Shown here: piece by piece, positions 6,102-6,370 of the stretch | Layout: each line of letters starts with the position of its first letter | Numbering within the stretch: the first letter of the stretch is position 1 | From: a virus | Length of the DNA stretch: 6,597 nucleotides | Reading direction: 5' to 3' (one strand) | IMG/VR virus record: IMGVR_UViG_3300045988_063854 | Location: 1-6,597 of that record | Notes under the pieces: generated by a model | What the model saw: only the letters and a program-made list of their open reading frames with translations | What the model was told of the DNA's origin: nothing | Databases searched by the model: none | Position numbers and translations under genes: made by a program

Positions 6102-6370
6102 GTTGAAGTGACACCATAATACTTCTGAACACTTCAACATGCTTGCCTTTAGTTTAGGCAAGTTCTCAGTGTGCGAGTTTCCGTAGGAGGAAACGACAAC
6201 CCATTTGTAATAACTCTATCCGCTAGGCTTCTATACCTATGAAAAACACTAGCCTTTTTGTTTCTTTTTGGGCAATGCCAAAAAGAAAGCCGTCGGCAGA
6301 CCCCACGGAGTGTAAATGCGCTCGCTTCCGCGCGCTAGGCGGAAGGCAGGTTATAGGGCTGCAAGCCCTA
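6102..6370 (+). other. Array of about seven consecutive stem-loops in non-coding DNA, a candidate complementary-strand origin, packaging signal or structured RNA
   Basis: I read these stems directly: 6102-6110/6130-6138 (9 bp); 6142-6148/6156-6162 (7 bp); 6177-6182/6189-6194 (6 bp); 6222-6226/6249-6253 (5 bp, weak); 6261-6271/6278-6288 (11 bp); 6325-6331/6339-6345 (7 bp); 6354-6360/6364-6370 (7 bp). The only ORF here is a doubtful 49-aa one. Confidence 0.6.
6161..6174 (+). repeat. 14-nt direct repeat, copy 1 (AGTTCTCAGTGTGC)
   Basis: It matches 6387-6400 (AGTTCTCAGAGTGC) at 13 of 14 positions, 226 nt away. The two copies bracket the most structured, GC-rich part of the non-coding region. Confidence 0.85.

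Follow-up and report, generated by a model that had tools for sequence, protein, structure and literature searches.

The locus

We examined a 6,597-nucleotide (nt) stretch of viral DNA, IMG/VR record IMGVR_UViG_3300045988_063854 (the window), with a focus on an array of tandem stem-loops at positions 6102 to 6370. A first-pass annotation, made from the sequence alone, had proposed this array as a candidate complementary-strand origin or structured RNA. The window is the small single-stranded DNA (ssDNA) genome of a Microviridae phage. The genome is circular and 6498 nt long, bases 1 to 99 being identical to 6499 to 6597 (assembly overlap), and all of its genes lie on the + strand. A gene for a DUF5675 protein (52 to 465, with a GTG start codon at 52) is directly followed by one for a hydrophobic peptide of 32 amino acids (aa), MEKKTIWNIIFKVAMYALGLLTGVTASAANLL (467 to 565); the two products may form a lysis pair. 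Then come a 580-aa HUH-type replication initiator (Rep; 584 to 2326), an F-type major capsid protein (VP1; 2329 to 4323), a 124-aa protein (4326 to 4700), and the DNA pilot protein (VP2; 4704 to 5885). The array sits within the sole long non-coding stretch of the genome, from 5886 to about 6549. Microviruses are among the most abundant gut phages, and the only close GenBank relative of this one is MT135341, a genome from pig faeces with 73% DNA identity.

A maintained array of three modules

The stem-loop array is real and evolutionarily maintained. All of the stems in the first-pass annotation are present, and we refer to them, from 5′ to 3′ on the + strand, as S1 (9 base pairs, bp, around a 19-nt loop; 6102 to 6110/6130 to 6138), S2 (7 bp, loop TTAGTTT; 6142 to 6148/6156 to 6162), S3 (6 bp, loop GTAGGA; 6177 to 6182/6189 to 6194), HP1 (11 bp; 6261 to 6271/6278 to 6288), Hd (a weak 5-bp stem with one G.T, GAGTG-TAAATG-CGCTC; 6308 to 6312/6319 to 6323), He (7 bp, loop GCGCTAG; 6325 to 6331/6339 to 6345), and HP2 (7 bp, inside the conserved GGTTATAGGG...CCCTAATCGCC; 6354 to 6360/6364 to 6370). 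Covariation backs two further small helices, at 6292 to 6294/6299 to 6301 and 6220 to 6221/6226 to 6227. The 11-bp stem is indeed a homopyrimidine/homopurine duplex. An AGGAGG that had been pointed out in one loop is also there (the S3 loop GTAGGA followed by GG), but it is not conserved, the S3 loops varying among relatives.

The density of stems had been described as far above that of the coding part, and our count agrees. Taking distinct perfect hairpins of at least 7 bp with loops of 3 to 20 nt, there are 5 in the 269 nt of the array and 11 in the 5885 nt of the coding part, a roughly tenfold difference in density. Folding against shuffled controls gave the same answer: the segment from 6095 to 6380 beats all 200 of its dinucleotide shuffles, with z scores of −4.7 as DNA, −3.8 as RNA of the + strand, and −3.1 as RNA of the − strand. 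A sliding scan with DNA parameters singled out the non-coding region as the most structured of the genome, the top segments all falling within 5851 to 6300. The best-folding segment starts at 5941 (z = −7.1), 5′ of the reported array; for segments covering the cassette described below, z was −3.1 and −2.4 (genome median, −0.5).

What did not hold is the notion of a single array. Comparison with relatives divides it into three modules with different histories, and it is thus a composite of a motif that we call X together with S1 (6088 to 6138), the S2 module (6142 to 6162), and a hairpin cassette (6169 to 6377).

Anatomy and covariation of the cassette

The cassette is about 210 nt long, lies on the + strand, and comprises five hairpins, as delimited by blastn, alignment, and pair counts. 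We assessed its covariation by counting pairs in a 16-sequence alignment of divergent microviruses under a hand-drawn structure, which we used because RNAalifold gave a poor consensus on the MAFFT alignment. Across the 16 sequences, 96.9% of cells pair, compared with 34 to 55% when the partners are slid. Double changes affect 13 pairs, compared with 0 to 2 with the partners slid, a result that none of 500 shuffles matched. Every helix of the cassette except Hd has at least one compensated pair. The stems are thus kept and covary in relatives, as the first-pass annotation had anticipated for a functional element.

At the 5′ end of the cassette, helix Ha (6171 to 6172/6199 to 6200; pair counts UA:13 CG:3) encloses a GCGA/GACA internal loop and S3, which is itself 99% paired, with two double-changed pairs. 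A two-pair mini-hairpin with a GNNA-type loop follows (CC-GCTA-GG, 6220 to 6227; CG:11 GC:5), the loop reading GCTA, GTTA, GCCA, GCAA, or GTCA across the alignment. The next feature is an invariant 18-nt box, CTATGAAAAACACTAGCC (6237 to 6254), which is predicted to be unpaired and ends in a CTAGCC tag; MT135341 keeps it as ...CACCAGCC. The tag also opens the HP1 module (6249 to 6288), in which a run of five T residues (6255 to 6259) precedes the 11-bp hairpin (6261 to 6288) with its invariant apex, TTGG-GCAATG-CCAA. Helix H1b is a 3-bp stem with a GGYA loop (GTC-GGCA-GAC, 6292 to 6301; GC:8 CG:7 and UA:13 CG:2). Hd (6308 to 6323) is 94% paired and varies on one side only (CG:9 UG:5); since its changes run from C to U only, the wobble (G.U) sits on the + strand. 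Both He (6325 to 6345; CG:8 GC:8 and CG:13 UA:3) and HP2 (6354 to 6370; two double-changed pairs) are 100% paired, and both are retained in MT135341.

A pseudoknot between CTAGC and the He loop, GCGCTAG, was also considered. The loop varies (GCGCCAG, GCCTTGG) while CTAGC is constant, and MT135341 has one compensating change. Readings of single motifs as a K-turn, a hammerhead-like fold, a CsrA site, a nut site, or a triple helix were discarded, as no motif fits the consensus of the element in question. Searches of Rfam 15 returned only a chance snoRNA match elsewhere for the whole window (E ≤ 1), a single chance match for 6090 to 6450 (E ≤ 10), no match at the element for 12 related loci at gathering score, and none for the Parabacteroides copy described below (E ≤ 5). 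ARAGORN found no tRNA or tmRNA genes. In the literature, the conserved hairpin sequence, sought as a literal DNA or RNA string, gave chance matches only, and a search on structured RNA, ribozymes, or non-coding RNA in Microviridae found nothing relevant.

Spread among microviruses

Blastn found the cassette in otherwise unrelated microviruses from pig faeces and a tunicate gut; in IMG/VR, two pattern scans recovered 34 microvirus-sized contigs that carry it. Its placement is uniform: in all 34 contigs, it lies on the coding/virion strand, 3′ of a VP2-like open reading frame (ORF), from which it is 125 to 370 nt away (544 nt in one contig). The next long ORF mostly begins 800 to 1100 nt further on. 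DNA identity of the cassette to that of the window is 75 to 92% over 50 to 215 aligned nt (~210 nt in about half of the contigs), whereas the proteins encoded by the same contigs are only 26 to 47% (VP1) and 23 to 34% (Rep) identical to those of the window. Nor does the level of cassette identity follow capsid relatedness, as two contigs with capsids among the most distant (L044 and L135) have cassettes among the most similar (88 to 90% over ~210 nt). MT135341, which keeps the box, He, and HP2, is without S3 and without the 66 nt that hold HP1, H1b, and Hd. The pattern is one of horizontal exchange or extreme constraint, with lineage-specific loss in addition. Note that in three contigs (L038, L103, and L047), direct repeats of ~20 nt (CATACACTAATAGGACCTCA) flank the cassette, two on each side, and resemble an iteron array split by the cassette.

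Downstream of the cassette, positions 6378 to 6447 (+ strand) hold the remnant of a further module, as seen from alignment and contexts against L057-type phages. In those phages, the segment is the 5′ arm (GCGCAACATAATAGACGTTACGACAT...ATGTCGTGACGTTTATTATGTTGTGCGC) of a ~26-bp hairpin, which is complete in many relatives and whose 3′ arm is missing from the window. Between the cassette and the first gene, there is also a perfect 18-bp palindrome, ACGTTTCACGTGAAACGT (6466 to 6483), which recurs as ACATTTCACGTGAAACAT in five or more microviruses that are divergent in other respects (L002, L038, L040, L095, and L140) and may be a protein-binding site. Just 5′ of the first gene, TATCTTTG at 6538 to 6545 (equivalent to 40 to 47) matches the Bacteroidetes −7 promoter box, TAnnTTTG, which is consistent with a Bacteroidota host.

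A candidate (+) origin upstream

Just 3′ of the VP2 stop (5885), a hairpin with a T-run resembles an intrinsic terminator (5911 to 5948, + strand; 13 pairs, 7 of them G-C, with the tail TTTTTGCATT) and places the array outside the late transcription unit. About 22 of the 34 related contigs have an equivalent hairpin and T-run between the VP2-like ORF and the cassette. Between the terminator and motif X lies an A+T-rich tract (5950 to 6085) with (TTTA)n-like runs, a 14-nt inverted repeat (5972 to 5985/6013 to 6026), and direct repeats, AGCTATTTA. The stretch from 6027 to 6139 has 86% identity with MT135341, which exceeds the coding level.

Motif X (CTTGTTTAATATTGGTTGAAGTGACAC, with a C-rich run before it; 6088 to 6114, + strand) resembles the phiX174 origin, CAACTTG^ATATTAATAACACTATAGACCAC, a likeness that we judged by eye. 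We verified the phiX174 30-mer at 4299 to 4328, within the protein A gene, and it is present in G4 too. In 27 of 36 related microvirus contigs, motif X occurs as one copy on the + strand, with none on the − strand. In the window, in contig L015, and in MT135341, motif X precedes the HP1 tag by 161 nt, but in most relatives it comes 180 to 440 nt downstream of the cassette, from which it follows that the modules have been reshuffled. The S1 hairpin (6102 to 6138), whose 5′ arm belongs to motif X, grows out of it. In other phages, motif X is followed by the same hairpin with other stems (CAAAAGTG/CACTTTTG, TAAAAGTG/CACTTTTA), so the S1 pairs are compensated. Motif X with S1 is most likely the Rep nick site and hence a candidate (+) origin. 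The S2 module (6142 to 6162, + strand) is common to close relatives only; in MT135341, all seven of its pairs are replaced (TTAGGGC/GCCCTAA) around a near-identical loop.

The HP1 module in bacterial genomes

The HP1 module, CTAGCC-Tn-hairpin, occurs in 36 viral contigs. When a single genome of each bacterial species was scanned, at least 120 bacterial stretches proved to have it as well. These searches used the tagged pattern, and the bare 16-mer TTTGGGCAATGCCAAA was dropped. By itself, the 16-mer mostly finds an unrelated coding region of a common 30- to 60-kb phage (context ACTACCATTCC...; L007, L009 to L011, and ~70 other IMG/VR contigs of 30 to 60 kb). Hosts among the matches listed are Dysgonomonas (many copies per genome), Prevotella, other Bacteroidota, Elusimicrobiota, Rhodanobacteraceae and Burkholderiales (Pseudomonadota), Saccharibacteria, Chloroflexota, and others. 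A covariance model of the phage cassette matches bacteria only at model positions 68 to 118 (76/82 to 118 in nearly all), which indicates that phages and bacteria share the ~40-nt module and not the cassette. A likeness between phage and bacterial elements in a GYGAG-hairpin-CGA motif, noticed by eye, is unsupported, as the model matches bacteria only at HP1.

The fold of HP1 is itself under selection. Among 88 distinct hairpins, the variable outer stem comprises 451 Watson-Crick pairs, 79 G.U pairs, 3 A.C pairs, and 23 other mismatches, and UUUU.GGGG extensions are frequent beside HP1. The 79 G.U compared with 3 A.C pairs indicate that the fold is selected on one strand only. Bacterial copies are intergenic in 115 of 126 cases and show no bias relative to neighboring genes, nor in their orientation relative to GC skew (51 of 117, P = 0.2). 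A canonical terminator lies downstream of 1 of 108 copies. Within ±3.5 kb, the only recurrent neighbor proteins are tyrosine recombinases in Chloroflexota. HP1 lies 30 to 100 nt downstream of the recombinase genes at three loci in metagenome-assembled genomes of that phylum (L146, L161, and L254), two of which have two adjacent recombinase ORFs.

The surroundings of HP1 differ between hosts. In Dysgonomonas sp. 521 (L151, L163, L174, L178, and others), HP1 is found in ~750-nt non-coding repeats bounded by ~43-bp inverted repeats (TAATGnCAATCAGTAGTTGA...CGTTC/GAACG...TCAACTACTGATTGnCATTA). A second TTTTGG/CCAAAA hairpin with another loop is also present in these repeats, and some copies have a nested ~130-nt element at either end. 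Elusimicrobium copies come after a 160-nt rod-like fold, and one of them has a fold z score of −7.9 and a textbook terminator after it. Rhodanobacteraceae copies lie within tandem arrays of covarying hairpins. Across 72,556 plasmids (blastn), HP1 is nearly absent, occurring in three Parabacteroides records only, as a variant with the loop GTCAAG and without the CTAGCC tag. Given this near absence, we rejected an identity of HP1 with a plasmid single-strand origin (sso) or origin of transfer (oriT). In a record of a Parabacteroides distasonis plasmid (L308, 2420 to 2540), the variant is preceded by CATCCCTGTCTGAGCGAAGCGAGTTGGGATG and adjoins an HU-family gene; a comparable internal-loop motif, GYCYGAG-hairpin-CGAGTT, lies 5′ of the HP1 module in Elusimicrobiota, Saccharibacteria, and Dysgonomonas. 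A phage-like contig from goat colon (L189, JAFQTK010000093.1), with large ORFs including one of 559 aa that is portal-like by eye, has two HP1 modules 3481 nt apart and is packed with a ~62-nt hairpin repeat containing CTAGCC...GGCTAG, of which there are at least 17 copies.

HP1 copies also obey a three-way length rule. We counted the T-run after CTAGCC (n1), the T-run in the 5′ arm (n2), and the A-run in the 3′ arm (n3). The three are equal in 94 of 116 distinct copies (loci L001 to L260), in phages and bacteria alike, with the classes 3,3,3 (10 copies), 4,4,4 (63 copies), 5,5,5 (17 copies), and 6,6,6 (2 copies). The rule holds even between two cassettes that are 97% identical (L016 and L086). 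Pairing accounts for two of the three runs; the first lies outside the hairpin. We considered that the 3′ arm might pair in two registers, with either of the direct C-Tn-GG copies, or that one protein might bind at each run, with two of the sites direct and the third inverted, as in FRT. Maintenance of a reading frame is excluded as the cause, as bacterial copies have no ORF, and the geometry does not fit a triple helix.

A possible start signal for complementary-strand synthesis

By analogy with known origins, we tentatively favor a reading of the cassette as an sso-like signal that is recognized by the host and starts complementary-strand synthesis from the packaged strand, a real possibility that nonetheless falls short of an even chance. 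The stretch would then control the circular ssDNA phage in cis and be read on its packaged (+) strand, with motif X and S1 serving as Rep nick site and (+) origin and the cassette, perhaps with S2, acting as single-strand origin. After entry of the phage DNA, the hairpins would stay folded while single-strand-binding protein coats the remaining strand, and RNA polymerase, primase, or a PriA-type primosome of the host could begin the complementary-strand primer at the site that they present. The invariant unpaired box between the hairpins would be the most plausible start or template site. A partner that is host machinery, and not a phage protein, would explain why the cassette is near-constant and exchanged as a unit among diverged phages.

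The cassette is non-coding, lies on the packaged strand, and has a fold more stable than chance, as is the case for complementary-strand origins. It is fixed in strand and position, outside the transcription unit, beside an ori-like motif, exchangeable, and partly losable, a combination that suggests likeness to an sso or to the Ff minus origin. In addition, high DNA identity across protein divergence is the pattern expected of a host-recognized, exchangeable cis element. In the intergenic region of Ff phages, the (−) and (+) origins are adjacent. To our knowledge, the start of complementary-strand synthesis is known for phiX174 and G4 and for no other microviruses. Hairpins with compensatory changes in other members of the family (roodoodoo- and reekeekeeviruses) have been proposed as negative-strand initiation sites (PMC9865509). 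The complementary-strand origin of the first-pass annotation therefore survives in part: strand, position, and fold fit a cis signal of the viral strand, but S1 is more likely part of the (+) origin.

Several observations weigh against this proposal. No priming, promoter-mimic, or PriA-site feature was recognized in the array, and the CS-6 hexamer TAGCGT/A, which in ssoA is located in a terminal loop and accompanied by the RSB site, is absent from both strands of 6090 to 6450. The region folds most strongly upstream of the array proper, at 5941 to 6210, and the U.G runs beside HP1, which would be weak as DNA, look more RNA-like. The existence of HP1 as a bacterial chromosome repeat with neither gene nor GC-skew bias is not predicted by an origin function; the 11-bp stem belongs to a tagged-hairpin repeat family of many bacterial genomes, and MT135341 does without it. 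This nearest relative also lacks S3, H1b, and Hd, and in phiHBP1, a Bacteroides microvirus that has been cultured, non-coding DNA amounts to only ~200 nt, and blastn with the non-coding region found no match. Together, the losses in MT135341 and the case of phiHBP1 indicate that most of the cassette is dispensable or replaceable.

Alternative readings

Possible, though on the unlikely side, is that the cassette is a small structured non-coding RNA of the phage that acts on a host protein or defense system. Its transcripts would start at an unrecognized promoter or read through the VP2 terminator, and the bacterial HP1 repeats would express related RNA hairpins. The excess of G.U over A.C pairs in the variable part of HP1, the frequent UUUU.GGGG extensions, the one-sided C-to-U changes in Hd that yield G.U, and the RNA fold z score of −3.8 all point this way, as does the Elusimicrobium copy with its z score of −7.9 and textbook terminator. 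The bacterial copies, intergenic and independent of neighbor orientation, resemble free-standing genes. Nevertheless, the mRNA strand of a microvirus is the virion strand, so the wobble asymmetry cannot separate RNA from ssDNA. The phage cassette has a terminator before it, no promoter consensus, and no discrete end: we found no Bacteroidetes TTTG-N17-23-TAnnTTTG before the array, only weak sigma-70-like matches, and in bacteria a canonical terminator follows just the one copy in 108. No Rfam 15 family matched, even at E ≤ 10.

Somewhat more doubtful is a selfish, mobile nature of HP1 and possibly of the entire cassette, as a tagged palindrome like a repetitive extragenic palindrome (REP) or a miniature inverted-repeat transposable element (MITE) that hitch-hikes in the phage. 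It would be moved by a host enzyme acting on ssDNA (an HUH/Y1 transposase or a recombinase) and spread among co-infecting microviruses by recombination. Occurrence in at least 120 stretches from several bacterial phyla, with many copies per Dysgonomonas genome, argues for this, as does the match of the cassette model to bacteria over the ~40-nt module only, which suggests that the module moves between contexts. The distribution among phages is likewise uneven: DNA identity stays high between phages whose proteins are deeply diverged, and the closest relative lacks the module. REPs are built in this way, with a conserved tag on the 5′ side of a hairpin, and the definition of a REP asks for a GTAG, GTGG, or CGTC tetranucleotide 0 to 2 nt from the hairpin foot (PMC3733652, PMC6006769). 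HP1 has the many intergenic copies per genome (Dysgonomonas), in both orientations, but its tag is CTAGCC, and CTAG is separated from the stem by 2 nt and a T-run of 3 to 6 nt. A MITE would be a non-coding unit bounded by terminal inverted repeats with a target duplication. Inverted repeats of ~43 bp bound the Dysgonomonas sp. 521 repeats that hold HP1; in the window, neither terminal inverted repeats nor a target duplication flank the cassette or HP1. Elements of the IS200/IS605 type (palindrome-associated transposable elements, PATEs) are a poor fit, as the end hairpins S3 and HP2 are dissimilar and there is no lagging-strand (GC-skew) bias in orientation. No transposase recurs beside the bacterial copies, position and orientation in phages are fixed (34 of 34), and it is improbable that dozens of lineages would keep 210 nt of junk in a genome whose size the capsid limits.

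It is far less probable that HP1 is a recombination target, folded or duplex, at which a host tyrosine recombinase integrates the phage into HP1-bearing repeats, whether as a three-element FRT site (two direct C-Tn-GG copies and one inverted, with a 6-nt spacer) or as a CTXphi-like hairpin attP. Some microviruses without an integrase are known to rely on XerCD and dif. The arms of HP1 with their 6-nt spacer do have a core geometry of the Xer/FRT type, all three C-Tn-GG copies change length together, as the sites of one protein might, and recombinase genes end shortly upstream of HP1 at the three Chloroflexota loci. However, that association is confined to one phylum, the free covariation of the outer stem indicates base pairing and not reading by a protein, and a T-run that varies from 3 to 6 would be intolerable to a sequence-reading recombinase. 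The phage-type left flank, which a junction left by integration would show, was found in none of the 120 bacterial loci listed.

We reject as highly improbable a small gene opened by the conserved ATG at 6239 (49 aa, MKNTSLFVSFWAMPKRK..., ORF 6239 to 6388). In its favor, ATGAAAAACAC is invariant, the coupled runs shift total length by multiples of three and so keep the frame, and an ORF is annotated at this place in one GenBank record. Relatives, however, do not maintain the frame: the ORF spans 11 to 115 aa with scattered stops even in close ones, the peptide differs between run-length classes, bacterial copies follow the length rule with neither start codon nor ORF, and no Pfam or PHROG match was found.

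These readings are not mutually exclusive; an origin cassette may, for instance, have recruited a mobile hairpin.

Significance

That intergenic hairpins might be the minus origin of microviruses is a known idea, proposed for other clades. What is new here is a defined cassette of several helices whose conservation across divergent gut microviruses far exceeds that of their proteins, together with its modular anatomy, its natural deletion variants, and the adjacent phiX174-like motif. New as well is the HP1 module, which ties these phages to a bacterial repeat that spans phyla, is uncatalogued, and obeys a three-way length rule. Our findings yield a defined, covariation-supported candidate of 210 nt for the start of the complementary strand, plus an adjoining candidate (+) origin. 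Regardless of its function, the cassette is a non-coding marker across microvirus clades that is useful for detection and for tracing recombination.

We regard it as improbable, though worth stating, that CTAGCC-Tn-hairpin represents a new class of tagged hairpin element that moves between the chromosomes of bacteria from many phyla and microvirus ssDNA via a host enzyme acting on ssDNA. Were this true, it would be the first mobile element known in Microviridae genomes, the length-coupled runs would be the footprint of recognition or copying, and the surrounding cassette would be a new non-coding functional unit of gut microviruses.

Comparison with known systems

Among described elements, HP1 comes closest to the GTAG- or CGTC-tagged palindromic repeats, REPs and REPINs, which RAYT transposases (HUH Y1) move (PMC3733652, PMC6006769). 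With these, HP1 shares a 5′ tag, a covarying hairpin with a strand-specific fold, many intergenic copies in either orientation, and occasional placement inside larger mosaic repeats. It differs in having CTAG(CC) followed by a T-run, in an apex that is invariant across phyla (REPs are lineage-specific), in its occurrence in phage genomes, and in having no recurrent RAYT neighbor within ±3.5 kb.

Motif X resembles the (+) origin of phiX174 and G4 and the CTTGATA nick sites of the pC194 type in its CTTG, A+T-rich spacer, and GACAC end. Order is the same as in the phiX174/G4 origin and spacing is similar, and motif X occurs once per genome, on the + strand. Whereas that origin is inside the Rep gene, motif X is in non-coding DNA and is tied to a hairpin, S1.

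The cassette can be likened to the PriA (n′) hairpin of phiX174, the three primase hairpins of G4, and hairpins B and C of Ff, all of which are stable, intergenic, active on the packaged strand only, and read by host enzymes. The minus origin of Ff lies beside the (+) origin, as the cassette lies beside motif X. No sequence or motif similarity to these origins was found, and the cassette is longer, with five helices, occurs in phages whose proteins differ widely, and is incomplete in the nearest relative.

A similar comparison can be drawn with the ssoA, ssoU, ssoT, and ssoW elements of rolling-circle plasmids. These are non-coding, folded, orientation-specific, and 150 to 300 nt long, and they are dispensable, host-dependent, and exchanged among replicons with unrelated Rep proteins. 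The cassette is set apart by the absence of CS-6, by an HP1 variant in only three Parabacteroides plasmid records, and by its replicon, which is a phage.

Within the family, the hairpins of roodoodoo- and reekeekeeviruses (PMC9865509) are comparable: they too are intergenic hairpins of Microviridae, with nucleotide conservation above the coding level and compensatory changes. Those hairpins number one or two and belong to a single clade, whereas the cassette is multi-module and cross-clade, and one of its modules is also bacterial.

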